A stretch of DNA of 63,777 nucleotides, the filler included, from Psammoneis japonica (Eukaryota): the NCBI GenBank assembly GCA_008632985.1. It is 8 parts of 8 records of this genome, joined end to end, with 100 filler letters (N's around TTAATTAATTAA, not from the genome) between each part and the next. Parts side by side here need not be neighbours in the genome. Positions count along the whole stretch, not along the records: positions 34,916 to 43,000 come from QPGO01000545.1; 7 more parts are not named here. One strand, 5' to 3'. The notes below the pieces were generated by a model. The model was not told where the DNA came from. It worked only from the letters and a program-made list of their open reading frames with translations, and made no database searches. This document shows positions 7,810 to 59,340 of the stretch, piece after piece (the stretch's first letter is position 1; each line of letters starts with the position of its first letter). The translations under genes and the position numbers were made by a program.

Positions 7810-9064
7810 CACCAACCCACCGACCCACCCACCCGCCGAATTGCCAACCCGCCGACCCGCCGACCCGCCGACCCACCGACCCGCCGACCCACCGACCCGC
7901 CCACCCGCCGACCCACCAACCTGCCGACCTGCCGACACACCGACACACCGACCCACCGACCCGCCGACCCACCAACCCGCTGACCCGCCGACCCGCTGAC
8001 CCACCGACCCGCCAACCCGCTGACCCGCCGACCCGCCGACCCACCGACCCGCCGACCCGCCGACCCGCCGACCCGCCGACCTGCCGACCCACCGACCCAC
8101 CCACCCGCCGACCCGCCGACCCGCCGACCCACCGACCCGCCGACCTGCCGACCCACCGACCTGCCGACCCACCCACCCGCCGACCCACTGACCCGCCGAC
8201 CCGCCGACCCACCGACCCACCGACCCGCCAACCCGCCAACCCACCGACCTGCCGACCCACCGACCCGCCGACCTGCCGACCTGCCGACCCACCGACCCAC
8301 CGACCCGCCGACCCGCCGACCACCGACCCGCCGACCAACTGACCTGCCAACCCGCCGACCCACCAACCCGGTGACCCGCCGACCTGCTGACCCACCGACC
8401 CACCAACCCACCGACCAACTGACCCGCCAACCCGCCGACCCACCGACCCGCCGACCTGCCGACCTGCCGACCCACCGACCCACCGACCCGCCCACCCGCC
8501 GACCCACCAACCCGCCGACCTGCTGACCCACCGACCCGCCGACCCGCCGACCTGCCGACCCGCCGACCCACCGACCCGCCGACCCGCCGACCCGCCGACC
8601 CGCCGACCTGCCGACCCGCCAACCCACCGACCTGCCGACCCGCCGACCTGCCGACCCGCTGACCCACCGACCCACCCACCCGCCGACCCACCGACCCACC
8701 GACCCACCGACCCGCTGACCCACCGACCTGCCGACCCACCGACCTGCCGACCTGCCGACCCACCCGCCGACCCGCCGACCCACCGACCCACCAACCCGCC
8801 AACCCACTGACCCGCCGACCTGCCGACCCACCGACCCGCTGACCCGCCGACCCGCCGACCCGCCGACCCACCGACCCGCCGACCTGCCGACCCACCGACC
8901 TGCTGACCCGCCGACCTGCCGCCCCACCGACCCACCGACCCACCGACCCCCGACCCGCCGACCTGCCCGACCCCCCGACCCACCAACCCGCTGACCCGCG
9001 ACCCACCGACCCACCAACCCGCCGACCTGCCGACCCACCCACCCGGGCCGACCACCGACCCGCC
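7810..9064. repeat. GC-rich 8-bp satellite (CCGACCCG and variants CCGACCCA, CCGACCTG, CTGACCCG, CCAACCCG), running to the contig end
   Basis: About 1.25 kb tandem array visible directly. Confidence 0.97.
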
Positions 9065-15214: not shown

Positions 15215-15720
15215 TCTTTGTTGGACAGTGCTTTGCCACAGTGAATTATATAATATTACGGCATAGCAATTGCGTCACTTTCCACAATTCTCAGCTGTGA
15301 TGATTGATGTTGTCGGTGGGCGGAATGCTGATGATTTGATGATGGCGGATGATGGATGCAAAGCTGAAAATGCGCGAATGAATGAAAGGCAGGCAGGGGG
15401 GGAAACAGTTGCGTTGGGCGGGTGGACAGGCGCCAACAACCCCATGCTGTTTGTCCGTCATTGCGCACACACGTGAATCTCTCCGAATGAATGAGTTCAC
15501 TTCAAGTTCATCTTGGCACTCAGTGAGTGCTGTGCAACATGCCAGTTGAGTGCATGGCCCTTGCTTTGTGGTGTGGGCTCACCTGCAGACATGACTCGAA
15601 ATCTTGGGTGTCAGCGCACATCACAAGACATTTTCCAGCATCTGCCAGTTGTTGTCAGCGCCGCGCATGTCAGCACATGCTCCCTCAAGACACAAGGGCC
15701 ATGACAGACATGTCAAGCAG

Positions 15721-20700: not shown

Positions 20701-23700
20701 TCCCTTCCTTTCTGAGAAATTTCTGCACAAAATCAGCGCCACGATTTCCCACCTCATGAGAAAATGCCATGCTTTTGAAGAATGAATGACAGTGTTCAAT
20801 GATGCTCATTAAAAGGAAAATTCTTTTCCAGAGCTTTGCTCAATGGCAGACAGCTTCAGCAAAATGCTTTGCGGTTTTGCAGTGTCTGACTGTTGTTCAC
20901 CATTGAGTGTTGAATTGCACAGGAGAAGCATGGTGGAAATCTTCCGCGCATCCCATTTTTTTCAGATTTTCCATCTGTCATCTTCCATGCAAAATGGTTT
21001 GTGCCAGAAAGTTTGTTTGCACAAAAAATCACCACTGAAGAGGGGGGCAAGTTGAAAAAGCAAGTTCTTGTTGTGTTCTCTGCACACAGTTGCTGCTCCT
21101 CTTGGCGCATCTCCAAAATCTCTTTCTCTCATGTGTGGCAGCCAATGCTTTGCACTGCTCCTGGAAAAAGTTTTCTTTGTTTGTCATTCAAAATGCCTGT
21201 CATCTCTTTTTTGAAATTGCGCACAAATCCCACATGGCTGGTTTGCCAGAAAATGCCAGGAAACTGGTGCCAGGTGCCTCTTTGTTCCTCCGCAGTTGAC
21301 AGTCATCTGATCAGGTGCGCTTTAGATCAAACATTTGCAATGGCATGCATGGCAAAACAGCCAGGTTTGTCATTGCACATGTTGTGAGAAGACAACAGCT
21401 TTGGCCCAAAAACATGCAGACTCTTTTTTGCAGAAGGGTCATTTTTGAAAGAGATTGCGCAAGAATGTGCGAGCCTGACAGCTCCAACCACTGGAAGGCT
21501 GGTGCCTGCAAAGGCTGTCCTGACAAGACAGCATGTTCTTTGGGCACCTTTGGTTCTTTGTCAGAAGCCTCAGCACAAGCTTAAAAAGAAAAGCCTGTGC
21601 TTCAGTGCTTGTTTTCCAATGTTCAGCCATGTGGCTCTCTTGCCATCTAGAAAGGGTGGAGTCATGGCATTGCAAATGGAAATCCAAGCGACTGTTGCTT
21701 TCAGGAGATGCAGCAAATGGATTGGACAAGGAGGGCCAAAAGCATGGGGGGCTGGACAACAAAAGGAGTGCAGCAAGTTCCTGGCCTGAGTTCCATGACT
21801 GCAGCATAATCATCAAATGGCAAAAAAAATCAAATTTGGAAAATTTGGCAGGCAAAAAGTGGTCATTGTTGTGAAGTGGGTGTTTAAAAAACTTGACATT
21901 CAAAGAGAAGCAAAAAACAGCCAAACACAATGACGTGCTGGCTGGCACAATTGGCCTCAGGTGAGTGCAGAAAAACAAGTCTTGGGTGCACAACATGATG
22001 TTGCCATGTGTTGTTTGTGGGTAACTTTGAAAGAGACATGTCTCCCATTTTCAAAAACTCAAAGGTGATGTTGTCAGCGAAGCTTCAAGAGTGGCGGTGT
22101 TGGCGGTGTTCAAGGCCAAAAAGTGGAAAGCAGTGTTCAGAACAATCTGTGCTGCACTCACTGTTTGTGCATTCATGCACTTGTTTTTTTTCAGCAGTGT
22201 GATGCTTGCTGTCCATTTTGTTGGATGCTTTGTCATCTGGGTCAACAAGATCATCCGGGACAGCATTTGACATCAACAGATTTGCCCCCACTGCTCAACT
22301 CTGTGCAAATGGGAGCTCAACACGGCACCAACTCATGTTCTCTTTGGCAATGGCCCGCCATTTTTCAAGGTGTGTGTGTGAAAAGCTGCTTCCAATGCCA
22401 TCTGGTGTTGTTGTTCATGTGCTCTTGATGGTGCCAACATGACAGTGCTCACTCTCAATTGCTCAATGTGGTGCCGGCAGAATGACTTTGGGAAAGTCCA
22501 TGGGATCTTGTGCGTTCATGTGACAGCACCAGCAGAATGATGCCCACTCTCAACTGCCCATTGTGGTGCAGTCAAAAAGAGACTCACTCTAAATTTGCTT
22601 TGAATGCTCCATCACATGCGGCAGGTGTTGACATCACCCAGGGATGGCATTTGACGTCAATCGATGCACCCCAAGTGGTTGACACAGAGCAAATCCAAGA
22701 GTTGAAGAGCACCCTGTTCTTTTGCAATTGCCCAGTCATGTGAGTGCAGCAGAGTGCCATTTTGATGTCCTCTCATGATTGCGATCTGGCAAGTGTGATT
22801 TGTGTGTTGTGCGCTTGTTGTGCTTTTGGCAGAATGCCACTCAGCACTCTCATTGCCTCGACTGTTTCATCATCAAGGATGACAAGCAGCAGCCAAAGAG
22901 CTTGTCACACATGCATGAGCAGCTGAATGGCAACATTTGCCAGCAAACAGCACACAATGATGACAACGAAATTAACCAGCCAGAACGAATGGCCATTGGA
23001 TTGGAGACAGGATGCCATTTGAACGTCAGAACAAAATTGGCCTTGAACAAAAAAGAAAAGCAGAGGCTGCACGTGATGTGAATTGATTTGTTGCATGGTG
23101 AAAAGAGGAGTGAACAGAAAGCAATTCATCACACAGTAAAAAGCCACCAAGCAAGTGTCACACTTGAAAATGTCGGGAACATTGTCCGCGTGGACACTGT
23201 GCTTGAATTTTCTTGTGCACGACATGCCAAGAAAAATGTTTGCATCAGAACCAAGATTTCCAGCATGGCGTGCAAGAATGTTCAAATTAAAATCAAAAGT
23301 TTGTTGGCACGTCGGGCAAGAATGCCGTGCAGGCATTTGCATGCGATGTCAGATCATCGCCCCGCCAGACGTTCTTCCAACAAGCCACCTCCACACACAG
23401 CGTGGCAAAGCCTTGGATGAATGACAGAGTCATCAAGAACTGGAAGTGTCTGTCTTTCAGCAGTGCCTGGCCATTCATTCCAAGCCTTCTCCAGCAGATC
23501 TGCACTCTCTGACCAGAAGGGAGTGACTGGCTGGGCAAGACACAGCACCTCATTCTTCTTCCCTGGTCGGGAGGAGATTCAATTTGCACGGCCCCCCTGC
23601 CTGGACAAACAAAGTGGACCGTGGCACCGCAGAAGTGAGGAGTGCCGCGTTTGTTGCCGAGCACTGCAATGGAGCCATTGTTTGCACGTTGCGTTGGTGG

Positions 23701-24015
23701 TCGCGAAAATTCGCTCATTTGCTTTGCGAGAAAATTGTGAGAGCAAACAAGGAAGCACCGCGCATGCTGCCTGCAGTTTCCGGTTGCGTTCGACTTCGTT
23801 CGATTTTGTTCTTGAAATATATAGTACGTACCTACAGTACCGGCTACCGGTATGTAGGTGTTCTGTCCGTACTCAGTACTCAGTAGTAAACGAAGTCGAC
23901 AATGACATGCATGGGTGCAGCAACGCCGTTCTCTCAGCGTTCTCCATCCACTGCAACTCACAACTTCTGCACAACGGTATAATACTGCAGCTCTTCGAAG
24001 TAAATCGATTCGACC

Positions 24016-34815: not shown

Positions 34816-35199
34816 NNNNNNNNNNNNNNNNNNNNNNNNNNNNNNNNNNNNNNNNNNNNTTAATTAATTAANNNNNNNNNNNNNNNNNNNNNNNNNNNNN
34901 NNNNNNNNNNNNNNNCCATGCTACTTAGGATCTGGTTTTATTCAAACACTTTGCCTGGATCTGTCAAAATCAAAGCAAAAGCATGAAACTGTCACCACAA
35001 GTTTTAAAATTACACCAACAGAGACATGGTCTTGTGAGTGAAATCATTGACAATGCCTGTGGATTTGAAACAGCTCTTGAAAACCACGGATGCTTCATCT
35101 TTGTAGCCACGTGCAAGCAAGACCTCGCTCGACATCTACATTCGTTGACAAATGCAATGCACCACAACTGGTCAAAGTGTGTGAGACCACTGCTGCCAG

Positions 35200-35690
35200 A
35201 ACTCCTGAGGAGAACAAGGAGTTGCTAAATGCTCTGGCAGAACATGCTGCACATTTGGCAGATGAGGCACCAACCCTCACATCCGATGAGATGCATCTCA
35301 TCATCGACTCGGGTGCTTCCACCACAATTTCAAACAATGAAAATGACTTTATTGATCACATGCGACCTGTCCAAAACTTGGACTTAAAGGGCATTGCATC
35401 TGGCCCAGCCATCGAGGGCATTGGCACGGTGCGACACAGCTTTGTGGATGACGATGGCAACAATTTTACCATTGACATCAACAATGTACTGCATGTGCCC
35501 ACTTGCCCGGTTTGCCTGCCATGCCCTCAACAAGTGGCAGCTGCTAGTCCCAATGAGGACACAGACGGGTTCTTTATAAGGGGTGAGTCCATGACAACAC
35601 TTTATGGACAACATTGCAAGACCGTGCGACACCACCATGAGACGAATCTACCGATTCTCACTGCGGCTCCAGGCTTTGGCAATTTTTGAG
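35200..35690 (+). mobile_element. Copia-type pol fragment (aspartic protease region)
   Basis: LIIDSGASTTISN, LKGI...IEGIGTV, DDDG, NVLHVP.CPV.L.CPQQ. Confidence 0.75.
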
Positions 35691-36169
35691 CTTTCTGCTC
35701 TGACATTAATGCAGATGGCAAACTGTGTTTTCCTACCTCAGCTGCAAAATGACATTGAAAATGGATTTGGTTCACAAACTGTTGAGGCCACACATGACAA
35801 ATGCTTTGCGAGAAATGGTGGAGCGAGATGATACGTTGCAAACTTAGTTTGGTTTTACCCATTTGGGGATCCCCCAAAATGGCAAGGGTAAGGGGGAATT
35901 ACCTTGCCCTTTTGGGGAATTCCAAGGAAATGTGGGAAGGAACAACTAAAAGGGCTCAGGGGAGGGGAACAAAAAACAAATGGAATGCGGCAATGTACGG
36001 TAATTATAGACAGGTGGGTGTGCTTTTATCCTCATGGCGACCGGCGCGCGGAAAAAACGATGCACGACCATGACGGATGCAAATCGACACAAAGCGGCCC
36101 CTTGTGGTAGAGTAAGGGAAGAATGAACTTTACCATTAAATCATGCACATTAACATTGCTCACCTGTGG

Positions 36170-36570
36170 CTCTATTTTTGCCTTAGCCTTTGCTCTAGAG
36201 CTGTTGTGGTTTGCATTTGTGACCACACGACACAAGAAGGAAAAAATGATACACTGCACTCTGTACATAAGATAGGTCAAAGGGAAGAATAAACATTGTC
36301 AATCAATCCGCCATATTTTCATTAACCTTGTGAGGATCTACTTTTGCCTTAGCCTTCACTCTAGACACCTCATGGTTTGCATTTGTGGCTGCACCACAAC
36401 AGAGTGATTCTAAACGATCTCTTTATTCTGCACATAAGATGTGTCAATTGAAATAAAAACCATGACCATTCAATCCACAATCCACCATATTTTTATCAGC
36501 TACACACGGTTCTACTTTTGCCTTGAACTTCACCACAAACGCCACATGGCTTACATTTGTGACCGCAGGA
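36170..36570. repeat. Three degenerate tandem units of about 170 bp
   Basis: tctaYttttgcctt...tggYttRcatttgtg at about 36170, 36337 and 36511. Confidence 0.7.
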
Positions 36571-37483
36571 AAGAAAAACATGCCCAATGTGGCGCCAAGT
36601 GACAGTTGATAGAGTAGTTGATAGATTGATAGACAAGATGTGCTTGTAGTAAATTGGGTTCATAGACGAATTATGAGCTAGATTGGAGGAGAGCTTTAGA
36701 ACCACTTCTCAAGGCTCTCGTCAAGGGTCCTCGTAGGACACACGTGTAACATGCACTGGAAGTCTTGTAATTAAGACACACAACAAGCTACCGAATCGAA
36801 AAATTTGCGACATCACAAAATTTGCGACAAATTCCGAATCCCCGCACAATCATCGCGCGGCGAGTCGAGAAACGACCCTTGTCACCCTCCAAGATCGTCT
36901 TTGCAACGCGGCCAACATCCTCTGGTGCAATTCAAGGTGCAGGCGTTCTTTCTACTTCGATTAAGAAAAGATATGATGCACGAGAAATGACAAGAAATCC
37001 TTATTTTCAAAGGAAGTTGCCTTCTCGTGACAGCAACTCATGCCGACGCATCGCAAGATTTCAACAAAAAATGACCTTTTTGGATGATTACACCGCCTTT
37101 CCTCACAAACAAAACGTCATTTAGCTCTTCATAATGATAACAATCTGATTGGTTTGTTATTTCATGTCACTTACAGACCTTCGGTTGTCGAAACAGTAGC
37201 ATTTGCTCATTTGAAGCGAAAAATGAAGCACTCAGAGACCTCGCACGTGCTTTCATCGTGAAAAAATTCGAGCCATTTGTTTTTATAAATTAATTTGCGA
37301 TTCGCAAATTTTGCGTTTCAGTAGCAAGAATTCTTCTTAGAAACCAGAACGTTCTCATAGGAGCGATAAGTCATTGAGACACTTAACGGGACATTGAAGA
37401 ATGTTCGGTTCTTGAGTTCGTATGTAGACAGACAGACAGACAGACAGATGGCACTACAGCACTCGCTTCCCCAACTGAACAGT

Positions 37484-38480
37484 CTAGAAGACAGGGTGAA
37501 GACGACGGATATTGATTCGTTCAGTGACGTTGGGAGAGCGCTGGATGGTGACTGTACCGTTGGTAGAGTTAAATTTGGATTTGGAACGATTGGTAGAGTG
37601 GAATTTGGGCTTGAGCCGACTTGTGGAGGTAACTTGAAGTGGGATGTTTTGAAGTTTTCGATTGACATGATGCCAGTCTTCATAGGTGGCATGTTGAGTC
37701 TTGTTTTCTGTTTTCATAGGGATGGTGACGTTGCCACAGGTCATCATGGTAGTCGTAAAATCCAGAATAATGCCGAGTTGTTTGCACGTTCGGCGACCGA
37801 CAACAATGGTGTGACGACCGATTGCATCGTCTTCAACGTACGCTTCGATGGTGACAGGCTTCGATTGAGAAAATTCAGGCAATGCAATGTTAAATGCTGC
37901 CTTGTTCTGAACTTGAACTGATTTGTAGCGGCTTTGTACCGGTGCAGAAATTGGTTTGATTTGATGGGAGATTTTTTCAAGGGCTTCGCGCTTGATGTAG
38001 TTGTTGTTGGCTCCAGAGTCGAGGAGACCGAGCACTTGCTCTGCATGAGAGGTAGAGGATGAGGTAAGTTGCACTTGTACATCTGCACTGATATTTTGTT
38101 GAGATTCTTGAGTATTCTGACTAGATGCTGTTTCAATTTCATTGATTTCATCATGGATGTCATTGATGCACTCGGATGATGCGCTTCCAAGATCGTCTGG
38201 GGGATCATTGTAGGTGCTGGAAGGATCTTCTATCGCGTTATTTTCGTTGTTTCTTTGTTGGTTGCTTCTGCTGCATAGGTCACAGCGATGAGTTGGCTGC
38301 TGTTGCGACTGGCTCCGAGTTTGGTTGTCTGGGCCATTGTTTTCTGAGGATTGGACACGTTGAAGCCTTTGTTGACGTCTCTGCTGGTAGATTTCTCGCT
38401 CACGGTGAACAACATTACATTCTTGTCCATTTGGATGGACTGCTCCATGGAGTGGGCATGTGTTGTTTATTTGGGAGCTC
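37484..38480 (-). mobile_element. Ty3/Gypsy-like gag-protease fragment
   Basis: CPLH...H.....C knuckle, LGLLDSGA retropepsin motif and IVVGR....LGIILDF. No RT follows. Confidence 0.7.
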
Positions 38481-38499
38481 GTAGAAGGCGTCGACGCCC

Positions 38500-39324
38500 T
38501 TGAGCTCGGGATGTGGGCCTGAACTGGACGGTTCACCCGAGTTCAACGCCAAAACGGCTAACTGCTGCCAAGGCCTTATTGGTGTGCTACGATGGGTAGT
38601 TGAACTAGGGCGAGTGGACATTTTTGTCGCTGTCTCGCTCATGTCCTCCTACCTAGCAGCACCACGAGTTGGACACCTGGACGAGGTGCTCCACATCTTT
38701 GCATGATTGAAGGCTCACTCTAAGTCTGCGCTAGTTGTGTTCGACGACACTGAGCCTGTCTTTGATGAGAGTTGTTTTACCAAGTGCGATTGGGAAGAAT
38801 GTTGCCCTGGCATGGCTGAACCAATGCCGCCGAATGTGCCGGAGGCACGCGGGAATAGCGTGACCACCACTTGCTTTGTCGATGCTGATCACGCCAGATG
38901 CCGTGTGACATGCAGGTCCCATGCTGGGATCCTGATGTTCATCCAACGAGCGCCCATCTTGTATTACTCTAAGCGGCAGAATACCATAGAGTCCTCTACT
39001 TTTGGGTCGGAGTTCGTGGCTATGAAGACCACAGTGGAGCAAATTGAAGCCTTGCGTTACAAGCTTCAGATGCTCGGAATCCCCATGGATGGGGCCACTA
39101 ACGTTTTCTGCGACAATGAGGCTGTCTTCAAGAACTCAACTAAACCAGAGTCCACTTTAAAGAAGAAGCACAATGCAATTGCCTGTCACAGGACTCGTGA
39201 GGCACAAGCCGCTGGAACAGTGCACATTGCTTGGGAAGACGGACACACGAATTTAGCGGACGTACTAACTAAGTTGTTGCCTGGACCGAAGCTCTGGGAA
39301 ATCATAAGTCATATCCTATGGTGA
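38500..39324 (+). mobile_element. Copia (CoDi-like) RT C-terminus and RNase H, with an in-frame stop at 38704-38706
   Basis: LIGVLRWVVELGRVDI, FVDADHA, SKRQNTIESSTFGSEFVA, FCDNEAV, STLKKKHNAI, NLADVLTK. Confidence 0.92.
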
Positions 39325-39467
39325 GTCCCAAAAGGGGACAAACCGAACGGGTTTGCCGCGTAGGTGTGGCTTTTCCCATCCCCAAAATGAAAATACTACC
39401 CTGGAACAGGGCAGCATCAGGTTGCATTTGTCTGTCGATCTGGCCCGAGTGGAGCTAGTGTCAGTTT

Positions 39468-39605
39468 GAGGGGACTGAATAAATGCTGATATGCTGTCAC
39501 GAATGTAGGCAGTTTATGTGCTGTTGGCGATTGGTCCACTGTCGCTTATTTAGTGGTCCCAGTAGCGTAACATCTCACAATTCTAGAACCTGTTGATGCT
39601 GTTCA
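39468..39605 (+). mobile_element. Putative polypurine tract and short 3' LTR of the Copia element
   Basis: GAGGGGAC then TGAA (39476)...TTCA (39605), about 150 nt after the pol stop. No second LTR is present to confirm it. Confidence 0.4.
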
Positions 39606-39633
39606 ACACTCTGTCTTGTCTTACACCCAATTC

Positions 39634-41145
39634 TTAGCTATCATGGTAGTGTTTATTCAGCATTTCATTGATGACATCCCAATTGGATGAAAGAACATTG
39701 GCATCGTGCTGTCGTAGATGAAAGTCTTGGTCGGAATGCTCTTGTGCCGACGGATCAATGGAAGGACGGCTGTAAGACAATCTGGAAAGGACTCGGACCA
39801 AGGCCTTGTTGTCACACCAGTTGTTGACACCTTCGTGCGTTGACATCTTGCAGAACTCAATCAGACGATAGATGAACCGAATCAGGGAAAGAAAACCGTG
39901 TGCCTCGGCTCAATAGGATGATGGCAAACGACCAAACACCAGACCAGCACAATCCACCAAGGGTCTGCCGTTGAATGCAACAGTCCATCTGAAGGTGGCG
40001 TCATGATGAAGCACGGATCCGTCACTCCCCGCCATGAGGCGACTTGATGCAAAATAGTCCACTAGTTCATAAACGGAAATGTGGAAATCAATGTCTGAAA
40101 AGAGAGAGGACTCCCAGGGAGGCAATGCTTTTAAGCGGTCTGCAAATAGGTCGGGTAAGGGTGGAGTTGTTTCAACCGAGAGTTTTGGGCGATGAGGAAT
40201 GTATTTCCATCTGCCATCTTCTATAGAGACAATCTCAACCGGGAATGATGAGTCAGAGGGGGAGGGAACCGTTTCGATTTGGTGCATCGACGTAGCGACA
40301 GTGTCCTGGACCAGAAAAACATCAAATCCTGATGGAGATCGAACGTATAAGCATGACTCTTCGGGAGACCAATACGCTGAACATTGCATCCTCATTTCAG
40401 AAGGGGGCACTAGCCAGTCTCCTAAGGGAGCTTTCAGACGAACTGAGTCTTGATGGCACAACAATTCACATAACCGCATCCAAGGACTCCATGCACGGTG
40501 GCAAGGTTTAATCTGTTCCACGTTGTTGAGGGTACTAACACTGCTGAGGTACGTAGGATCACCATAAACTTTGGACTCATCTAAGAAATGTCCGTCTGCC
40601 AAAGTGACATCCAAGACTGTCAGGACCCGAAGATACAAGCGGCAACAGTTGATCCATCTGATCTCTCTAGAAGAGAATGCTTGTGACTCCAGAGCAACAT
40701 CCATTAAAAACTGATCGTTGACTCTTTGCAAGGGGAGGACACCGTCTTGGGACAATGTAATGTATCCTCCAATGCGCTGTAGAAATGACTGAACTGACGC
40801 AAACCACAGCGACTCATTATGTGGATGAGGAGCATTGACATCTCTGAGGAAGCTAACCCCCATGCCTGGATGCAGCTGATTCCATGCAATGGGAATGTAA
40901 ACCGCAGCACATGGTTGGTTGTCTTGTGTGAGATGCTGTGCACTGTGAGAATGTTTCAATAACTGTTGTATTTGGGCAATGCCCTGCTCAACGTTGAGAG
41001 ATCGAAATCCACCACCACCGAGAGATTGCGGGCCGTATAGAATCAGACGCTTTGCACTCCTGTTGTAACAGCATTTGGCGAACATAACTCTCATAGCATG
41101 TTGCTGTATTTGTTTCAACACTTTGGAAGCAAAGTGAGAGTTAGC
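39634..41145 (-). mobile_element. Ambal-like non-LTR retrotransposon, internal fragment (copy 3, lightly mutated)
   Basis: 403-aa ORF aligns colinearly with 2960-4170 (GPQ.LGGGGFRSL, LPLQR.NDQF, TLADG, PLGDW, AGSDGSV). Continues as CDNKALV...WDVINEML. Confidence 0.9.
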
Positions 41146-41151
41146 AAGGAC

Positions 41152-42852
41152 AAGGCCCTGCTTGTTGCATCATATGACAAAGCGCTACGTCAGGCGATTG
41201 CGTCCGACGAAAATGTCATGGATCATCTCCATAAGGACGGAGCAATGTACTTCTACCACGGCTTCAAGCAGCTGTTCCCGTTGCCTGAGATGTATGTTAA
41301 CGGCATCCAGACAAAATTGTCTGAGGTTTCTCTTATCAACGATTGCAACGGCAATGTCAACACGTACAAGCATAAGTTCAGGCAGTACCTCCGCCTAGTT
41401 CATAAGCGCAATGACACACTCGAGTGCACTCTCATTGAGAAAGCCTTCACCTAACTCCAAACCGCCACATGGAAGCCATTCGCAGCCAAGATGGCCAAGC
41501 ACAAGACGGGCTGGATGCTTAAGAAACATGTTAAGTGGACCGTCGAGACCCCATTCGAGGAAGCCAACAGCCTCCAGATGGCACTTAAGGCACAGGATCT
41601 TTGGGACAAACCTTCCATGGAAGAAACCCAGTTCATGGCCATGCTGGCTCAGAACGAACAGCTCGTCAGCTTTGCACAGCAGATGACGAAGGTTGCCTCT
41701 ACTTTCCAGTCGTCCCTGCAGCAGAGTACGCGATACGAGCGTCGTAACAACCGTTACAACAAAGTGGAAGCACACATTTTCGAATTCCCAGCCAATGCAC
41801 TATGGGGCATTGAAACGGACGAGGTCATCGCCAAGAAATCCGATGACCAGACATCTGTGCATTTCACGCAACGTGCGCTCAAGGCCCTGCTTGTTGCCTC
41901 GTATGACAAAGAGCTACGTCAGGTGATTGCGTCCGACGAAAATGTCATGGATCATCTCCATAAGGACGGAGCAATGCACTTGCACCACGGCTTCAAGCAG
42001 CTGTTCCCGTCGCCCGAGATGTACATTAACGGCATCCAGACAAAATTGTCCGAGGTTTCTCTTATCAACGATTGCAACGGCAACGTCAACACGTACATGC
42101 ATAAGTTCAGGCAGTACCTCCGCCTAGTTCATAAGCGCAACGACATGCTCGAGTACACTCTCATTGAGAAAGCCTTCACCAAACTCCAAACCACCGCATG
42201 CAAGCTATTTGCAGCCAAGATGGCCGAGCACAAGATGGACTGGATGCATAAGAAACATGTTAAGTGGACCGTCGAGACCCCATTCGAGGAAGCCAACAGC
42301 CTCCAGACAGCACTTAAGGCACAGGATCTTTGGGACAAACCTTCCATGGAAGAAACCCAGTTCATGGCCATGCTGGCTCAGAACAAACAGCTTGTCAGCT
42401 TTGCGCAGCAGATGACAAAGGTCGCCTCTGCTTTCCAGTCATCCCTACAGCAGAGTACGCGATACGAGCATCGTAACAACCGTTGCAACCGCCGTGACAA
42501 CCGCCGGGGACATCAGGGTTGTGGTGGTCACGGAAACAGTCGTGACCGCGTACCTTGCCATGGTTCCCCTCCGTTCTTGTACATTGAACCCAAGAACAAA
42601 GAAACAGAAAAGGAGTGGGGTAACAAGAAGTGGCATTGGTGTGACACATGCAAGATGTACTCCACTCGCCACAGCACCGGCACCCACGATGAGTGCATTG
42701 CCTCCAATGACAACAAGAGCGCCAAGTGTCCTGGAAACGTGCAATCCAAATCTGGATGTGACCACAAGCGCCAGAAGGCTAGTTCCAAGATTCAGCAGAA
42801 AACGTATCAGCGGTGTGGTAAGTGCGGTCATAACGGCGGTATGGAAATCTGA
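41152..42852 (+). mobile_element. Copia-type gag-like ORF with an internal duplication of about 610 bp (41152-41760 and 41881-42489, offset 729)
   Basis: Duplicated KALLVASYDK...RNNR. C-terminal WHWCDTC....H....H motif of diatom CoDi gag. Stop at 41452 in the first copy. Confidence 0.75.
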
Positions 42853-43184
42853 TTGGACAAACGATGTCAGCTAAAAACTTTGTTGTTCACAATAAGTAAT
42901 GTTGACAAGTTGCAGAAATTTGCTGCAAACTTGTCCCTCTCTCAATCTGTTGCCTCTCTTGAACAGAAGAGGGGAGAAGGTAATTAGAAAACAACTAATG
43001 NNNNNNNNNNNNNNNNNNNNNNNNNNNNNNNNNNNNNNNNNNNNTTAATTAATTAANNNNNNNNNNNNNNNNNNNNNNNNNNNNNNNNNNNNNNNNNNNN
43101 AAGGGGTGTATAGGGATAGAAAAGTTGAGCAAGGAGACACGTTAGCAGAACAATTGGAAAAAACAAGTCCATAACAACACTTAC

Positions 43185-44579: not shown

Positions 44580-47299
44580 GGTGTGTATGTCGTCGTTTGT
44601 AGAAGGACGGCAGTGGTGCTGTTGTTTGCGGCGGCCATTGTCTCTCACACACAACGATAGGATCGAGCAGGCAGGCGCAGGCGACGGACGAGATTCGTCA
44701 ACGGAAATGTTGTACTGAGATACACGTAAGTACATATTCGTAAGATGTGGTATAAAACATAAAATATCGAAAAAAATAGATAAAGCTTGGTCACGACGGA
44801 TTACCCGAGAAGCGCCCACTTGACATGCTGCTCCAGCAATTGTTGCACCCCGAGACCAATCTACTCCCAAGTGCCAAGAACAGTGGCAGGCAAGGTAAGA
44901 AGGATCTGCAGAAGCTGGCGACTCCACCACCAAGTCGCACATCCCACATGTCATGCACAGAACACACCCGCTCTTTTGATTTCTTGTCTCAGGCCTGCCA
45001 CCCACTGCTGACATGATGAGTTGCAATGACAAAGTGCAAAAGTTTTGTAAGAAACATCCCACAGGACTGTGGGTTAAGACAAGCAAATGGTGGGATTGCA
45101 ATTTTTGCTCTCAAAGACAAGGTGCTGGTGTTTGCAGAGAGTTGGGGGTCAACAGAAATGGGGACAATTGCACAAGATCCTCTCGCAATGTAGAGCCCAA
45201 GGAAAAGATTGGCACCTGTTGCACAACCGCAGAGAGCCAGCCACAGCTGAGGAATTTTTTGCAGCCGGAGGAATCATTGCAGTTGGCAGCAACATTCCTG
45301 CAGGAAGAGGATCCATCACTGGAGGAATTTTTGTGGGGATTGGAGGTGAGGAGGATGGAGGCGTTGCTGCGAATGTCGTCGCCAGTGTTGTCAAGTCAAT
45401 GGAGGTTGAAGGAAGCATTGTTCATGAAGTCAGCAGGATGGCATGGGGAACTTGGCTGCTGGTTGGAGCAGCAGAGACCACTTTGTGGCTGGCCAGAGCA
45501 GAGAGGGGGAAGAATGGTTTGTTCGCCAAGGCAGTCCTTTGCTTTGCCACACACAAATTTGAGTTGAGCGGGTCACAGCAAGTGACCTGCAAGAAAAGAA
45601 TTTGCCAGTGTGGAAAAGGCTGAGCAAATGGGAAAGAAGCCCCACAACAAACAGTCGAAAGTCTTGAATCATTGTGTGCAACCGCCAACAACAGAGTCAG
45701 TGTCTGAGGCATCACTCGGAGACTCGCTCATTTTCTGCAGCCCTTGCCTCATTGTGAGGGAATCAATTGTTGTCCAAGAAGTGAGATCTTTGCTCTTTGT
45801 CAAGCTCAACTTTCATTCAGAAAGTTGAGCTGGAACAAGTTGATTGAAGCTGCTTTGCAACTGGAGAAAAGACTGGACTGGCTGAAGCCGCATTTGCTGT
45901 GCGCAGCTCACTCGTTCCACATCAGTTAACTCACTTGCAGATTCCCTGCATGATCAAAGGCAAACAGTTGAGCAACATTGCCTTGCATGACCACAGTTCC
46001 ACCAGCAAATGTCAACATGGAGGGAACAATGAACAAAAGAGCTGGAAGCCCCAAGCTTGAAATTCCCGGAACAAACTTGAGTGCCAAACAACCTGTGGCA
46101 AACCCCAGCAAGCAGGCTGCAAAGCAATTGCTGTCTTTCTGCTTTTTGATCAAACCAAGGGCAAAATGCAGATGATGGACAAGGAAAGATGGCATCTCCC
46201 AGCCCCCCAACAAGTTGATGACAAAGTCACTTTCTTGTTGTCACTCTGGATGGAACCACACAAACCCAGTTGTCTCTGCAGTCAAAGTGTTGCATTGACA
46301 ACCGGGCTCTCTGAGGCACAAAGTGGTCTCCATGTCAAACAAAAAGAAGATTCCTCTTTGCATTCAAATGACTGGCACTTCAGCAAACAACATCATTTGG
46401 CTTGTGGTTGTGGCAGGGAGAACAAGGTCCAATTCTCAAGGCACATGAACAAGGACATGAGGAATGGATTGTGCTGGCAGATCAAGGTTCTTGACTTTCA
46501 GATGTTCTTGCCATGAGAGTCAGTTGCAAAAATGATGAAGATCCAGAGGAGAATGGCTGGCCTGTCAGGACTTGTCTGATCAAAATGAATGAAAACACTG
46601 CTGAATCAAATCTTCAGCTTTGTCAGCTCATTGAGAACTGGACAACAAAACACAAAGACAACAAGCACAAGACACAAGACAGAGCAGCATGTTGCTGATG
46701 ATGACGCATTGTGTGATGTTGTGCACTCTCCGTGTGTTTCACCTGACCATTTGTGGGCTGCCAGCAGCACCATCGTAAAGTTGGTCAGAGAGGCACATGA
46801 GATGAAGACAATGCTGATGAGACATTTTGCAAAACTCACACTGATGTCGCAAAGTTGCAGCTTGCTGGTGATGAATGTCCAGACAATGCAAAAGAGGATT
46901 GTGGATGTCCTTTTCCCTGACAACACACACGACTAAAAAATAAAAAAAAAGCTCCACTCAATGAAATTGCCTGCTGAAACCATGAATCTTGAAATGATCC
47001 GTCTCTCCAAATGTCATGAAAAGGCGTTTCTGTTTTTGATTCCCTTTGTCGTGGTGCATCCTGTCCAAGTCCCATGCCAAGCTGCTTTTTTGTGAAAAAG
47101 AGATTGCTTGCCGGCAGCTTTTCAGGTGGTTCCAAGAATGTGCCTGTGTGTGACAGAGACGATGCTAGCAGTTCCACAGACGTCACAAGCTTCCTCTGTT
47201 GACATGCTTTCATGAGCCAACTGCAGCACTTGAAATTGTTGCAATCAACACATTCTACAATCTGCTGCATTTCGTAAACATCTGTTGATCATGCTTCAA

Positions 47300-52213: not shown

Positions 52214-55200
52214 TTAACTTTCACACGCTTCCTCTGTTTGCTCTTGTGGTGGTGGTTGAAACGACGGGTTCTTGACCCACAATCCATCGACAAGCATCCA
52301 TTTAAAGGCCGTCACCGGTTTGCCTCGTCTCTTCCACGAATTGCTGGGATAATTGTGAATACTCGCTCGGACTTGAGATTCATACGCTTCAATCAAATGA
52401 GACGCATTCTTAAAGCTGCGTCCATCCAAAGCACCCCGATGGGGTGCGCGTCGACTAGCGGATGTTTCTTCTTCCTTGTGTTCCTTTTCTGTAATAAAGG
52501 CTTGTCCCAATTGACGCATTTCATAACGATAGGCATCACGAATGGGAAGGTAGGCGACTCGTGAAAGGTACATGCGAAAAATGGAATTAATCTTGGTAGC
52601 CGCCGTGGACTGCTCTGTGCTGCGTATCCGTTCCAACGCTTCAAAAGCCTTGTGACGTAAAAACACCTTGGTCTTGCCCAACTGTATACCCACCTTGGCC
52701 AAGTCACTAGCGCTGGGAGCAAAGCCACGACGAAAGGACGATGAACCACGAAAGGTGGGTGTTGGAGCTGGTGGCGGTGGGGCTGCTGCGCTTGCCGCCG
52801 TCGATGTATCGGGGCTCTTGGCCCATGGAGGATAATTCTTGAGCTTGGACGGAGCCGTTTTGGGTGCGGGTGGCAAACCAGCACTACCACCATGTGACGA
52901 TGATCCATTGGATGCTGACCGCGCCTTCCACGACGGCGGTGGAGTGGCCGTTTGGTACGAATACGATTTTGCCTTGACGGGAGCTTGGGAATTAGTCGTA
53001 CTAGCATTGCCGCCGTCACTTGCTCCTTCTGGGACATTTTCTTTTCCCTCCTCCTTTTCTAGCTGCAAGAGTTTCTTGTAAATAACCTTTAGCAACTCCT
53101 TGCACTGTTGTTTGGCATTCGGAGCCGGTGGCGCTTCGGGTGACGACGACGACGATGCTGCGGCTGCCGGTGAGCTACCAAACGACGCGCTGCGAGGGGT
53201 TCCAGGTGTACCCCATCGCTTTCCGGTATACGTACTCTTGGCTGGACTGGGACTTGCGACGGCTCCTCCTCCCTTGTTAGCCCAACTCGGCAAATTGCTA
53301 TTGCCATTATTCAAATTGTTGTTGTTGTTTAGTTTCATTTCTTTCAATGCCAATCCACGGTATCGACGATAAAAGTCCGCGTGTGGATAATGTTGTGTAA
53401 AACCCGCTCGACTGACACGAACCGCTTCCAAAATACCACCACAACGCAACTGTTCGGCAATCACCACGGCATCAAAGCGATCCGGTACCAAGTGATCGTT
53501 TGGTTTGAGACAACGGATATAATGCGGTGACGTCAAATCGATTTTGGTTCGTAAATTCTTGAGCTGCCGACGAAATTGACCACCCACCGTCATGGTTTTG
53601 GCCAAGGCGGATGAATCGGTGCGCTTGAGCTTGTACGGCATAGTACTAGCGGAATGATGATGACTGCTATTGTTGTTGTTGTCCATGCTATTCTTGTCAT
53701 TGCCCTCAACAAGAATTTCCGCCAAATGCTGAACAAAGGGATTGCCACTCGCCTTGAGCAATTCGGTCGATTCCTTGGGCAACTCATCACGGTTCTTTTC
53801 AATAAACCCATCCGCCGTGTATTCGACGGGACCGGCATAATGATCAATCTCAAACCGTTGCACCGCTTGTTGTTTACGACTCGCTTGGAACCGCGGCTGT
53901 CCACGACACTTGTTGTAAATGTCGGACGCAAACGATCGGTCCGTCGTTCCCGGAGCACGGCATTGATCGTCCAAAATGTTCAAAATACCCATGCCACGCT
54001 TGTCAATCAAATCCAGCACGTCTTGATTTTCCGGAAAGGCAATAAAGGACCATTCAATGCCCTCGCGTTCGTATTCGGCCTGTTCGTTTTTCAAAACAAA
54101 GGCATTGAATTGTTGCTGCAGCGCTTCGTTGCAATAATTAATGCACAATTGTTCAAAGGAATTCGTTGTAAAGGACTCGAAACCAAAAATATCCAAGACC
54201 CCAATCGTCGCCGCAGGCCTGGACCACGTGTCATCCTCAATCACATCACCGTCGTCATTGACATGAGGTTTGTACGCAATGGAATCATTAATGCGTCTCA
54301 CCAAATACGTAAAGAGCGATCCATACGTGGCTTTAATCAATGCCTCCAATCCCTTGTACGCTTTGGGTTGTGACACGTGACGTCGTACCGATTCCATCCC
54401 ACCCGCTTGAATATGAAAATAACAAAGGGCTTCATTCAAATCGTGTGGTGTCACACCCAACAAGTGACAGACGGGTTGCAAATGAACATTGTCAAAATCC
54501 AATTCACACTCTTCTTCTTCTATAGCATCAAAGGTCAAATTGGAACTGTGCAAGAGTGCCGCAACAATACGGAAAATTTCCGTCTGTTCAATGGCATCGA
54601 ATTTCATCATTTCCATGGCCACCCGCAATGCCTTGTAGGTTTCTCCATCCTTGACACCATCTCGACGATCCAACGTTCCCGAATGTGTCATTTGAAAATC
54701 ATCCGGTGTGGCCGTTTTGGCAATAAACAAATTCCGTAATTCCTTTTCCGACATGCCCTCGAGTATTTCAAAAAACACGTGATAATTCCGTTCTCCACTC
54801 GATTGTGTCACGAGACGGACCTTTTCTAGCAGATAGGTTTCAATGGTGGCACCCACCAATTTACCCGAACGGGTAAATTGAATCTCGATGAATTTACCAA
54901 ATCGACTCGAATTGTCATTGCGAACCGTACGGGCATTACCAAAGGATTCCAAAATGGGATTCGATTGCAACACTTGGGCTTCAATGGAATTTTTGTTGTT
55001 ATTCGACGAAAGGGATGTCGTCGAGAGACCCAAATCCATACTGTCCATGCGAGAAACAGGAGAAGAAGTATTGTTATTGTTGTTGGTTGCCCAAGATGGC
55101 TGGTTTGTTGGAGACTTGGGACTCGTAGCTGCTGCTTGTTGCAATTCACGAGACTTTTCAAAAGCACGTTTGGGTGTCGTCTTGATGGATCGTTGCGATA

Positions 55201-55998
55201 GTGCTGCCAAATACTTCATGACAAATTTCGTCGTGACCGTCTTGCCCGCACCACTTTCACCCGACACCAAAATGGATTGATTGCAACAACACTCTTCGGT
55301 AGAAGAAGAATCAATCGTTTCATCCATGCGTCTCATCATGCTTCGAAAGGAAGCATCGGCAATGGCATAAACGTGGGGTGGTAACGTATTATTGGTACGC
55401 TTCTTCTTTTGCAAACTACTACTACTCGCATCCCAATATCGTTTCATGGTGGCTTCTCCATAAAGACCACGAACATGTTTGAATGGATTCAACGCCAACA
55501 GCACGGGCCCCGTTGCCGTATAGATTGTATCGTGAGTGTACCAATGTTCCAAACAATGCACGACGGCGGGTTCATGCAAATGAGTCAATTGAATCAAATC
55601 ACGGGGATATTGCAGTGAACCCGTCTCTGGATGACGGGGAAGTTCGTTATCCAACAAGACTTGACCCGTTTGCAACACACTTGCCGGCAATACCAACGTA
55701 TCGTCACCACATCATCATCAAGTTTCACCACGACACCACCGTCTTGATGACAACTATCCAACATACTTCCCAACATCCAACCCCATTGTTGATTACGACC
55801 ATGTTGTTGTTGTTGAGAAGTGGAACTGCTGCTCTTGGCAGAAATGCTACCCGCATCACTCTCGGCATCTAAACTCTTGCTATTCACTAATGCAACAGCA
55901 CCACGTCCGAAACGAGGTATTTTAGGGTTACGAATTGCATCAATTACACTTGCCTTGATCCAAACGCGTGTAGTTGCTTCGGATGATGATAATGACAT
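52214..55998 (-). CDS. Myosin (motor domain, about one IQ motif, short tail), with one 1-nt frameshift near 55705
   Basis: LHEPAV, LNPFK, PPHVYA, GESGAGKT, LESFGNARTVRNDNSSRFGKF, LDIFGFE, RCLKPN, QLRCGG, GKTKVFLR. The N-terminal frame from the ATG at 55998 joins on adding one G. Confidence 0.95.
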
Positions 55999-56424
55999 TG
56001 TTGTAATTGTAATTGTAGCGGCAGTTTGTTTTTGTTGTACGTACTGTAGAGCATGGCGGTGGTGGTGTTGCAGGCAGAAAATCTTTTGCTTCGTCTCCGC
56101 CCGGCTAACTTGCGCGCGTTGAATGTTTAAATTCCAATGATTGGTCCTCATATCCATAATAAATTATTAGTCGTGTCTTGCGATCAACGTACTGTACGGT
56201 AAGTGGATTTGCATAGATGCAATGTCAGTCCCGAACCTACCGTTGGTCATTTTATTCAATGATACAGATAATAAACTTGATACTAATATAGTCATGTGGG
56301 ATAGAAAATTGAAAAACTGAATATCCATGAATATGTTGATAAATAGACTTCCAATGAGAAGCTGACTTGTTCGACCCAATTCGATCTCCCCGTTGAGTTT
56401 AAACATGCTGTGCAGCACGGCAGG

Positions 56425-56548: not shown

Positions 56549-58894
56549 GGACACCACAGGGCTTCATGGCCAGGTGGCCCACGTGGGGACGGACCTGGCC
56601 GGCACGTGAGGGAGCATCTCTGCACCAACTCTCTCCAGCTGGAGGGCCCTCTGCTGGTGTCCAGTCCACCAAGGACCTCAATTGAGGCAAAAACCTCAAT
56701 TGAGGATGGTGCAAATTGTGTGGAATTTGACAGACCGAACGGCGATGCCGGCCAGAATTTTTTTAAGGACTGAAAAACATTTTTGCGAGGGCAGGCATTT
56801 ACATCGCTGAAATCAACACACTCTGAGACACAAACTCCACATGTGTTGTGTCTTGCGACTGCAGAGTTTTTGTGCTCGAATCACTGGGAGTTAAGCGACC
56901 ATTTGGCATCTCTGGCAGGACACCCACGTAGAACATGCGATCCTCAATTGAGGAAAAATTCCCCGGCAGACTAGACACCAGCCAGCCAAGTGGCAGGAAG
57001 GGGACACGGAAAGTCGGGGAACCCAAAAAGATGGTGGAATTCTGTCAAATGTGTGTGCTTTTTCTCACTCAAATTTCAACTGTGTGACAAAAACCTTCTG
57101 AACACACGTGCTTTTAACGCAGATTTAAAAGCTGCGTCTGAGTGCGAAAAAGCAGCATCACCAAGATTTTGTGGGCATGTTGCAGCATTTTGCTGTCATG
57201 AACCCGATGACAACACTGCACTGCTCCCACAGAATGCCTGGATGGCTTCAGCCAAGCTGTTTGAATGGCTTGAAATCGTCTGTTCCATCGCAAACAATCA
57301 TTGTCGATCGTCGCTTGGTGCAGATTTTTGATTTTTGTCATGGCAGAAGATGGGGCTTGGCACAAAAAATTGAGCATGACATCACAAGCACAAGTTCTGC
57401 ACCATGCTGCACGACAATTTTCCACCGTCTTTGCGGGATTGTGTGAAAATGGTGCTTTCGCTGCAAGCACAACTCCATTGCGAACCTGAGCTGGAGAAAA
57501 GCACAAACACAGTCTGTTGCCACCGGATGCACAGATGAGCTTTTTGACGTGTTCCAGCCGCACGTGAACCAAATCGTGCACAAAAATGACATTTGCGCGA
57601 TTTTTGCGCAGTCCCCAACTTGCAATCGAACTTTCACCACCAAAAGCACAGATTTGTGCAAATGCAAATGTTTTGCAACACTGGCAAGACTCGTGTGAGT
57701 GTTGCAACATCATTGTTGTTGTGCTGTCTGTGTTTTNNNNNNNNNNNNNNNNNNNNNNNNNNNNNNNNNNNNNNNNNNNNTTAATTAATTAANNNNNNNN
57801 NNNNNNNNNNNNNNNNNNNNNNNNNNNNNNNNNNNNTTAAACACTAACGTTTATACACTGCCCTTTCATAAGTATCAATACTCACAAAGACAAATCATAT
57901 GCTGTCTTGATAGGATGGTACACCCATAGCGTAAAATCAACGTTGAATGGACATAACAATATTTTGGTTGTGTGCACAGCGCGCCCTCGACAAAGTGTGT
58001 CTTTCACCGTCTCACAAAAACGTGGGAGTAGCGATTGGAAGAAAAACGGGTTTGCTGCAGTCCTCCTTACCGTCCTCATCATTGCATAAGCGTGTTGATC
58101 AAAGTCTACAATATTTCTCGCCTATTCCAGTCACTGTCTTTCCTCGTTCACAACACAATAACATTGAGGAGGCTTGTTGCTTGTTATTTCGCCCACCAAC
58201 TCTTCGCAGTATCCGCCTTTTCACCTTTCGGTAAGTGTGTATTGTAAAACAGCAGAGGAGTTCTACAACAGTACCGTACGTCGGATCTCTCCTAACCTTT
58301 CTTGTTGACGATTCTGGCAGAATTCTACATATAAAATAGCTAGAGACAAGAAGAATGGAGGCGTTCGATTCCTTACGATCTATGATCACGTTTGAGGAAA
58401 GCAGCACCAAGGAGCAAGAACATAGCCCACCCGAAGCTCCAACAGACCCAATGAAGGAAGAGGACTCGTCGTCTGAGAACGACACTCCAGAAAATTCACC
58501 ACGAGGGGAAAAGAAATACCTGTCTATCTCGCCCATAGTAAACCCATTCCTCCGAATCAAGACAGGATCACTGGGCAACTTGTATTACTCCAAATCCAAG
58601 ACAGTTTAAAACCTCTAGAATAACAACATTTTTGCTTTCATGATTAATGCAATGGAATCCGGTTTCACGAGAAGAGATTAGAATAAATACCGTGGTTTTT
58701 CTGCTCCCTTTTGTCCGACTGGGGTGCTTGCTTCCGACGCACGTTTTAAGATAACGACAAACAACACGGTGACTGACCTCAGGGGCGTTTTGCAGCCAGA
58801 ATATGAGCTGTTCAATGAAAATCGGCTCAACCACTTTCTCGCCAGTGGAGAGCATACTTAATTGTGTGTACAACGTCTCTCTAGACAGCAAGAA

Positions 58895-59340
58895 ACGGCT
58901 GATAGCCGACAAGAAGTCAGAGTAGGCGCGACACCACTAGCTAGAAGTAGCTACGCTAGTAGAGAGGGAGCGAGAGCTTGGTTTGAAGATGGGCTCTGAA
59001 TACAACGGCATGCCGGCTCAGATCCCATGCCTCGCCAGCCAGAGAGTATGTAGTTCATTGTGTGAACGACATCTCTCTAGGCAGCAAGAAATGTCTGATA
59101 GCCGACAAGAAGTCAGAATGAATGGGCGCGACGCTACTACTACCGTAGAATAGAGCTCTACTCTATACTAGCTCTCTCTAGCTAGAGAGTAGAGTAGCTA
59201 GTAGAGTAAAACTCTAGCTAGAGGGATAGTCGCTCTAGCTAGAGAGTAGAGTAGCTAGAGTAGAGTAGAACTCTCTACTCTCTCTAGAGAGAGAGCCTCT
59301 ACTACCTAGCTAGTAGTAGTAGTAGCTACTCATAGTTAGT
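58895..59340. repeat. TAG/CTAG/GTAG-rich low-complexity tract with an internal duplication
   Basis: ctagctagagagtagagtagctag is repeated. gatagccgacaagaagtcaga occurs at 58901 and 59097. Confidence 0.85.

Follow-up and report, generated by a model that had tools for sequence, protein, structure and literature searches.

In Neurospora and other ascomycetes, repeat-induced point mutation (RIP) turns C into T, chiefly within CpA, and raises the TpA content. Conversion of CpG to TpG or CpA typically results when methylated cytosine is deaminated, and diatom transposons are methylated. A process acting on TpA has been described in mutation-accumulation lines of Bigelowiella natans: 231 of the 302 mutations lay in two integrated viral regions, and 230 of these 231 were A-to-G or T-to-C changes, all on TpA and found in some lines only (Mettrop et al., bioRxiv 10.64898/2026.01.13.699255). 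An ADAT2-like deaminase is put forward there as a candidate (bioRxiv 10.64898/2026.01.13.699255). Beyond this work on a chlorarachniophyte, a literature search returned nothing relevant on TpA-specific A:T-to-G:C hypermutation in diatoms or transposons. Here, a duplicated segment of a putative retroelement gag open reading frame (ORF) is described from a 63,777-nucleotide stretch of Psammoneis japonica DNA (GenBank assembly GCA_008632985.1), referred to as the window, which consists of contigs joined by N44-TTAATTAATTAA-N44 linkers. The segment lies on contig QPGO01000545.1 (positions 34916–43000 of the window) and is present as copy A (41151–41760, + strand) and copy B (41880–42489, +).

An earlier, sequence-only reading of this DNA had proposed that the duplication was caught early in a joint loss of TA and CG, with reciprocal mutations in each copy. 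The analysis presented here retains the reciprocity but separates the two kinds of change. With a probability of roughly 60%, the tandem pair has been changed almost only by two uncoupled transition processes, CpG decay and a lighter loss of TpA.

Transitions between the Two gag Copies Fall at Pyrimidine–Purine Steps

The two copies form a direct repeat of 610 bp at a constant offset of 729 bases (243 codons), with 40 mismatches, no indels, and 93.4% identity, and the longest identical stretches reach 75 nt. The differences comprise 33 transitions and 7 transversions. All but one of the transitions (32/33) occupy pyrimidine–purine (YpR) steps, which cover 317 of the 610 sites (binomial p 1.3e-8); the claimed concentration of differences on TA and CG sites is thus borne out. 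The examples offered for it were found where they had been reported: TAC at 41248 and 41254 faces CAC at 41977 and 41983, TGC at 41425 faces TAC at 42154, CCA at 41476 faces CTA at 42205, CGTTAC at 41751 faces CGTTGC at 42480, ATG at 41578 faces ACA at 42307, and TATG at 41293 faces TACA at 42022.

The differences also run both ways, as had been described. At 19 single sites CG in one copy is matched by TG or CA in the other, with the CpG decayed in copy A at 10 (6 TG and 4 CA) and in copy B at 9 (4 TG and 5 CA), a pattern that supports CpG decay having struck each copy independently and on either strand. Seven sites pair TA with CA or TG; four of them keep TA in copy A (41248, 41254, 41701, and 41756) and three in copy B (42155, 42206, and 42447). 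Exchanges between TA and CA/TG make up 7, and at most 13, of the 33 transitions, and they occur at 7 of 124 sites at risk, compared with 1 transition at 293 non-YpR sites (Fisher p 0.0011). Dinucleotides common to both copies number 22 CG, 17 TA, 57 CA, and 26 TG. Among the 40 differences there is no pairing of CG with TA.

At three further sites, TG in one copy faces CA in the other. The sequence-only reading had derived these doubles from CG, and independent changes of CpG on opposite strands would be expected to yield 1.1–1.8 of them, compared with 0.3–0.8 from a TA ancestor; a CG ancestor is therefore likelier, with a TA ancestor as the weaker candidate. In coding terms, 15 differences are synonymous and 25 non-synonymous, and the ratio of non-synonymous to synonymous change per site (pN/pS) of 0.42 could stem from CpGs located at the borders of codons or from differences that accumulated while the copies were still under selection.

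By context, the variable TA sites are TAC at five places and TAG at two, with none in TAA or TAT, whereas the conserved ones are TAC at 10, TAG at 3, TAA at 13, and TAT at 8; these are small numbers. They are partly consistent with TpA survival in DNA of the window from which TpA has been erased (TAA 0.19, TAG 0.10, TAC 0.06, and TAT 0.02).

Loss of TA Is Favored at Three of Seven Sites

Evidence on the direction of the TA changes comes from a third family copy and from distant protein homologues. Together these favor change from TA to CA or TG at three of the seven sites, while one site points weakly to gain and three are undecided. The third copy is a 144-nt unitig of run X1 (depth 91) placed on 41872–42015. 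In the 40 of 79 rows of the X1 difference table that were available, it shares the copy A state at 41924, 41977, 41982, and 41983 and has G at 41903, 41916, and 41978. It consequently reads TG at 41903 and 41916, where copies A and B both have TA, and it creates a three-state site: TA in copy A (41248–41249), CA in copy B (41977–41978), and TG in the third copy. Since TA is the sole state one step away from both CA and TG, at least one TA was lost there.

The protein homologues suggest the same polarity at this site. Copy A encodes Tyr (TAC) at 41248 and copy B His (CAC), and Tyr is found in both P0001 and P0002, which argues that TAC was ancestral and that the CAC of copy B is derived. Around it, P0001 and P0002 read Y-F-W opposite Y-F-Y in copy A and H-L-H in copy B. 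Less firmly, TA also appears ancestral at 41254, where Tyr in copy A and His in copy B are matched by Trp in P0001 and P0002. At 41425, copy A has Cys (TGC) and copy B Tyr (TAC), and the residues in P0001, P0002, and P0007 are Trp, Trp, and Tyr, respectively. Site 41718 is synonymous and site 41756 is unalignable with the homologues.

Older repeat DNA of the window gives a consistent picture. ORF 3448–5610 (+), in which TA has been erased (observed-to-expected ratio [O/E] 0.07), contains no Tyr in 241 aligned residues. Its relative on the minus strand at 39910–41169 (TA O/E 0.49) has nine Tyr in that alignment, and four of the nine face Cys or His. Near-total TA loss, an excess of CA/TG, and loss of Tyr from the erased relative therefore point to a net flux in repeat DNA from TA to CA/TG. 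The proposal that TA was ancestral and lost to CA/TG thus gains support at three sites and from the near-total TA loss in the window, but not at the other four, one of which leans weakly in reverse.

TpA Loss and CpG Decay Are Not Proportional

Composition was scored as TA O/E in 120 intervals of 500 bp across the whole stretch, and five host-gene ORFs in the window served as the unmutated baseline (TA O/E 0.44–0.57, CG O/E 0.83–1.15). The distribution is bimodal: 59 intervals fall below 0.2 (termed erased), 10 lie at 0.2–0.4, 50 at 0.4–0.9, and one is an outlier at 1.61. Pooled TA O/E is 0.061 in the 59 erased intervals and 0.634 in the unmutated intervals outside contig 34916–43000. Erased intervals have CA/TG at 1.4–2.0 times expectation, and TA correlates negatively with CA/TG (r = −0.79). 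AA is undepleted (O/E 1.1–1.3). Borders between erased and unmutated DNA are abrupt, TA O/E passing from 0.03 to 0.73 at ~23.7 kb and from 0.55 to 0.03 at ~45.1 kb.

The gag pair lies outside these erased domains. TA O/E is 0.59 in copy A, 0.54 in copy B, and 0.49 in the contig as a whole, which belongs to the upper mode except for its leftmost 800 bp (0.26–0.41). CpG O/E in the copies is 0.82. These values do not sustain three claims of the sequence-only reading. A partly depleted contig is not borne out, since its TA O/E is within the range of host genes and, like that of the copies, a little below the pooled unmutated value, and only the left 800 bp is intermediate; an early stage does not fit copies whose TA content matches that of host genes; and a cumulative or graded process is at odds with a bimodal distribution and abrupt borders.

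Nor do the two processes act together as had been suggested. Per lineage, the pair has lost ~15% of its TpAs (−ln survival 0.16) and 23% of its CpGs (−ln survival 0.26), a TA:CpG ratio of 0.6. The corresponding values in erased intervals are 2.34 for TA and 0.58 for CG, a ratio of 4.1 that is roughly seven times that of the pair, and the two processes are therefore uncoupled. The repeat DNA of the pair is aged by the CpG measure and shows little TpA erasure; TpA erasure itself looks domain-wise or episodic.

Several further features of composition were observed in the window. The transition from erased to unmutated DNA takes no more than one or two 500-bp intervals at 14665–15665, 23211–23711, 44601–45101, and 55888–56388. 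In erased DNA, the extent of CpG loss varies with the neighboring base: CGT (equivalent to ACG) stands at 0.48, CGA (equivalent to TCG) at 0.62, CGC at 0.91, and CGG at 0.93 of their frequency in unmutated intervals. An array of 8-base units (GACCCGCC, with variants GACCCACC and GACCTGCC) extends over more than 1.1 kb from 7900 to 9064, at the end of its contig; it is 78% G+C and lacks TA, and its variants differ as CG versus CA/TG, i.e., as CpG decay inside a satellite. A low-complexity, TA-rich stretch at 58837–59340, built of CTAGAG/GTAGAG-like units, accounts for the TA O/E of 1.61 and is repetitive yet unerased; a string akin to these units also occurs at 42794, as an unmatched end of a contig from run X2. 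The unmutated baseline includes two host-type ORFs at 9351–11009 (−) and 52217–55711 (−), which from their translations alone resemble an FtsH-like protease and a myosin-like protein of 1165 residues, respectively (TA O/E 0.44–0.50, CG O/E 0.83–1.15).

The ORF Is Predicted To Encode a Gag-Like Capsid

Comparisons of the protein by sequence yielded distant relatives. No Pfam gag or zinc-knuckle model, or any other family, scored above cutoff for the gag ORFs or for homologues P0001–P0008, and a word-indexed search found no close protein relatives. A HMMER search of 1.84 billion representatives returned eight unnamed proteins of 21–33% identity (best E values 1e-31 and 1e-27), which are too distant to serve as a nucleotide outgroup. 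An AlphaFold model of the spacer between the copies (41761–41879, +), copy B, and the C-terminal tail has a mean predicted local distance difference test score of 72 and is all-helical to residue 238. Foldseek gave no match for this model in the PDB at E <= 0.001. In a VIA-align search of 48,161 chains, the best match was the capsid C-terminal domain (CA-CTD) of PEG10 (Z 9.4, root-mean-square deviation 2.9, 85/85 residues aligned), followed by the Drosophila Copia capsid (Z 9.1), PNMA2 (Z 8.4), the Ty1 Gag CA-CTD (Z 8.0), and then Arc, murine leukemia virus, and Rous sarcoma virus. Capsids of retroelements or retroviruses fill rows 1–12, and the best-scoring row of another kind has Z 6.4.

According to the tool's own warning, a VIA-align Z under ~13 can denote a common helical arrangement. 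The label gag is nevertheless a fair one for the modeled ORF, because the capsid rows are consistent among the top matches. The matches at Z 8.0–9.4 cover model residues 33–190, and the duplicated part corresponds to residues ~41–243, that is, to the capsid-like domains and a long helix. In this sense the duplicated gag segment of the sequence-only reading is upheld, with a capsid-like fold. The ORF resembles the known Gag capsids of PEG10, Copia, PNMA2, Ty1, and Arc in its all-helical predicted fold and in a Cys/His motif downstream. It differs from them in having no Pfam gag match and no pol behind it on a contig that ends 148 bases past the last base of the ORF (42852).

Copy B Appears To Be the Native Copy

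The reading frame from 41041 to 42852 spans 604 codons and has one internal stop, a TAA at 41452–41454 in copy A (+). Copy B has AAA at the corresponding place and an open frame across the capsid-like helical domains. The stop was made by a transversion and is therefore the product of neither dinucleotide process. Copy A is itself in frame. It is followed by the unrepeated spacer of 119 bp, then by copy B and by the gag C-terminal region (42490–42852, +), which carries a W-x-W-C-x2-C ... H motif common to P0001–P0008. Spacer, copy B, and tail follow the same linear order as P0001 and P0002, in which the segment is single-copy; the spacer's SDDQTSVHFTQRALKALL, for example, aligns with NDQSTDQFASRVLQELL. 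The three best full-length matches (P0001–P0003) have one matching stretch each, and the repeat region occurs once in every aligned homologue. This colinearity argues that copy B, with the spacer that precedes it and the tail that follows, represents the native gene, and that copy A is an extra internal fragment. Beyond copies A and B, no further copy of the gag segment was found in the window.

A simple tandem duplication that included both spacer and repeat was considered and rejected. The 119 bases preceding copy A show 17–37% identity to the spacer at offset 729 and derive from a different repeat, which lies on the minus strand. Tandem duplication is therefore insufficient, and at least one additional rearrangement cut copy A at 41151. 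The adjoining sequence (39910–41150, −) is a fragment of an unrelated repeat ORF, which taken to 41169 is 52% identical over 242 residues to ORF 3448–5610; the latter has a weak RNase H match. At the left edge of the contig (34916–35700), an ORF for a retroelement Pol beta-barrel domain lies in DNA of TA O/E 0.26–0.41, CG 0.40–0.49, and CA/TG 1.6–1.7. On the same contig, three diverged direct repeats of ~166–174 bases (69–78% alike) occupy 36114–36567, with TA O/E 0.64 and CG O/E 0.35–0.58.

Unitigs of run X1 were used to examine the arrangement; runs X2 and X3 placed 1 and 0 unitigs at the locus, respectively, and were uninformative. Run X1 contains 76% of the sampled words of 41000–42900, and its unitigs reach all 30 bins of 40000–43000. 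On that interval 189 X1 unitigs were placed at 90–100% likeness (58 at >=99%, 52 at 95–99%, and 79 at 90–95%), and the X1 unitigs suggest ~3–6 copies of the gag family at 90% likeness or above. Perfect unitigs join copy A to the spacer (41639–41847) and copy B to the tail (42417–42651). Changes private to A and to B are interleaved within 3–7 bases (e.g., 41464/41467 and 41477/41481) and are crossed by perfect X1 unitigs of 168–209 nt, so the reciprocity is not an artefact of phase switching in the assembly. One discrepancy was noted. At 42193 the contig has A (CCACC), and an otherwise identical 168-nt X1 unitig of copy B has G (CCGCC), an intact CpG. One of the 19 CpG differences is therefore absent from run X1, reflecting either polymorphism at a CpG site or an assembly error.

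Alternative Explanations

The considerations that weigh against the proposed reading concern the direction of the TA changes and the reality of the pair. A single process could account for all of the differences if the TA-variable sites had changed in the RIP direction, by C-to-T change at CpA (G-to-A at TpG), for example through deamination of non-CpG methylcytosine. Leaving aside the direction at TA sites, all 32 YpR transitions are formally C:G-to-T:A, and the copies are not TA-depleted relative to host-gene ORFs, so that a dose of TA loss is unreadable from their composition. No nucleotide-level outgroup was recovered by the protein searches, by protein or a degenerate DNA pattern in metagenome contigs, or by the same pattern in viral contigs, and four of the seven TA sites are accordingly unpolarised. 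At two of the sites a homologue has the non-TA state. P0001, the closest homologue (27% identity), has Ala at 41701, like the GCT of copy B, which would make the ACT of copy A a gain of TA from TG, although the region is poorly aligned and the indication is weak; P0002 has Pro at 41476, like the CCA of copy A, the other six homologues having A, I, I, A, H, and A. Some of the third copy's variants at sites that differ between A and B may also be unitigs of the other copy laid across, as six unitigs fit two places. Against an exclusively RIP-directed process stand the TA loss required by the three-state site and the Tyr or aromatic residues of the homologues at 41248, 41254, and 41425. Change from CpA to TpA is opposite to the state of older repeat DNA in the window (TA O/E 0.06, CA/TG 1.6–1.9), and it fits poorly with the absence of CG-versus-TA pairs. 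The ~38 CAA, CAG, and TGG codons of the two copies have yielded no stops where ~1.5 would be expected, a deficit that is not significant. An explanation by change in the RIP direction is regarded as unlikely.

Somewhat less probable still is that different members of a multi-copy family were wrongly joined into a tandem pair during assembly of a short contig, or came to lie side by side by chance, and that the differences are ordinary divergence between copies. The window is made of contigs of 6–9 kb, and contig 34916–43000 is a patchwork of repeat fragments; the summed depth of the 189 X1 unitigs is several-fold above the 36–71 of single perfect unitigs, and assembly from short reads might go astray in the long identical stretches shared by A and B. 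Of the X1 pieces listed (8 of 191), none bridges the left junction of copy A or the junction of spacer and copy B. Run X1 may moreover be the source data of the contig, in which case its agreement is consistency rather than independent proof. The pN/pS of 0.42 is a sign that selection acted during some of the divergence, part of which may be older than the duplication and have arisen in separate, still-selected elements. The perfect unitigs across the other two junctions, an offset that preserves the reading frame, and a single stop in 604 codons all speak against an artefact, and the spectrum and reciprocity of the differences would stand even if the copies had been juxtaposed, since they share an ancestor. 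The least probable of the alternatives, to which we attach little weight, places the A-to-G changes at TpA on RNA, through ADAR-like editing of double-stranded retroelement transcripts, fixed by reverse transcription before the copies met. ADARs prefer U before the edited A, as stated by Mettrop et al. (bioRxiv 10.64898/2026.01.13.699255). The capsid-like fold marks the element as a retroelement, and the changes are A-to-G or T-to-C beside T or A, as such editing would produce. The pair itself cannot tell action on RNA from action on DNA. ADARs also accept a 5′ A, whereas AA is undepleted in the window, which argues against editing; moreover, ADARs are known from animals only. The abrupt DNA borders of the erased domains are also unlike transcript units.

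Discussion

Under the favored account of two uncoupled processes, the first would be change of CpG to TpG or CpA, which has altered roughly one CpG in four per copy and has acted on both strands; this pattern can be seen in the alignment, and methylation is its presumed cause. This CpG half of the pattern is ordinary. The second would be a lighter change of TpA to CpA or TpG (A:T to G:C) at ~15% of the TpAs per copy, of the same kind as the TpA erasure in the window; its direction is indicated at three of the seven sites and presumed for the remainder. The TpA differences in the pair probably represent low-level action of the process whose erasure of TpA is conspicuous in other parts of the window. 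By analogy, the agent of the TpA change could be a DNA adenine deaminase, as in the published hypothesis for the one described case.

The gag pair does not establish the TpA-erasing process, for which other parts of the window are far better evidence. What it may add are two constraints on mechanism. TpA erasure and CpG decay would run on different clocks, and a linked 610-bp duplicate at 93% identity, in a member of a multi-copy family, was evidently insufficient to trigger saturating erasure of TpA. The escape of a linked duplicate from saturation favors a mechanism directed by domain or chromatin, or one active in episodes, over homology sensing. A more ambitious interpretation, which we offer tentatively and hold at somewhat less than even odds, is that the pair serves as a dosimeter of a DNA-level mutator of TpA to CpA or TpG. 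Such a mutator would act at low dose outside the saturated domains, strike copies independently, and hit the same TpA repeatedly across family copies. It would be separate from methylation decay and would not be triggered by duplication, and so would differ from RIP in both logic and chemistry.

Three known systems bear comparison with this locus. The CpG decay of methylated transposons resembles the gag pair in that CG changes to both TG and CA, with the two strands affected and each copy hit independently. As in RIP, a linked duplication whose length and identity are suitable carries dinucleotide-specific transitions in each of its copies. The pair departs from RIP in that TpA is not enriched and is lost where its direction can be assigned, and in that 17 TpAs are intact in both copies, so that duplication as such has not driven the process to saturation. 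The RIP signature of CpA-to-TpA change with TpA enrichment is likewise not seen in the TA O/E of the copies (0.54–0.59) or of older repeats (0.06), nor in the excess of CA/TG.

The closest counterpart is the TpA hypermutation seen in giant-virus and virophage DNA that is integrated in the B. natans genome, in which TpA changes to TpG or CpA and TpA depletion is tied to CpA and TpG enrichment (bioRxiv 10.64898/2026.01.13.699255), as in the window. Depletion of TpA with an excess of CpA and TpG in bounded regions is found here at the level of the window and not in the gag pair. The erased DNA of the window, at an O/E of 0.06, is far more strongly depleted than the B. natans viral region, for which a Rho of 0.45 is given. 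There the process was measured directly on single-copy viral inserts, whereas here it is deduced from a retroelement pair, with direction assigned at three of seven sites. The gag pair is also light in TpA change and dominated by CpG decay, which goes unreported in the B. natans preprint. The B. natans process is local to foreign DNA, inconsistent between lines, and not clock-like, features that fit the uncoupling of TpA loss from CpG decay observed in P. japonica.

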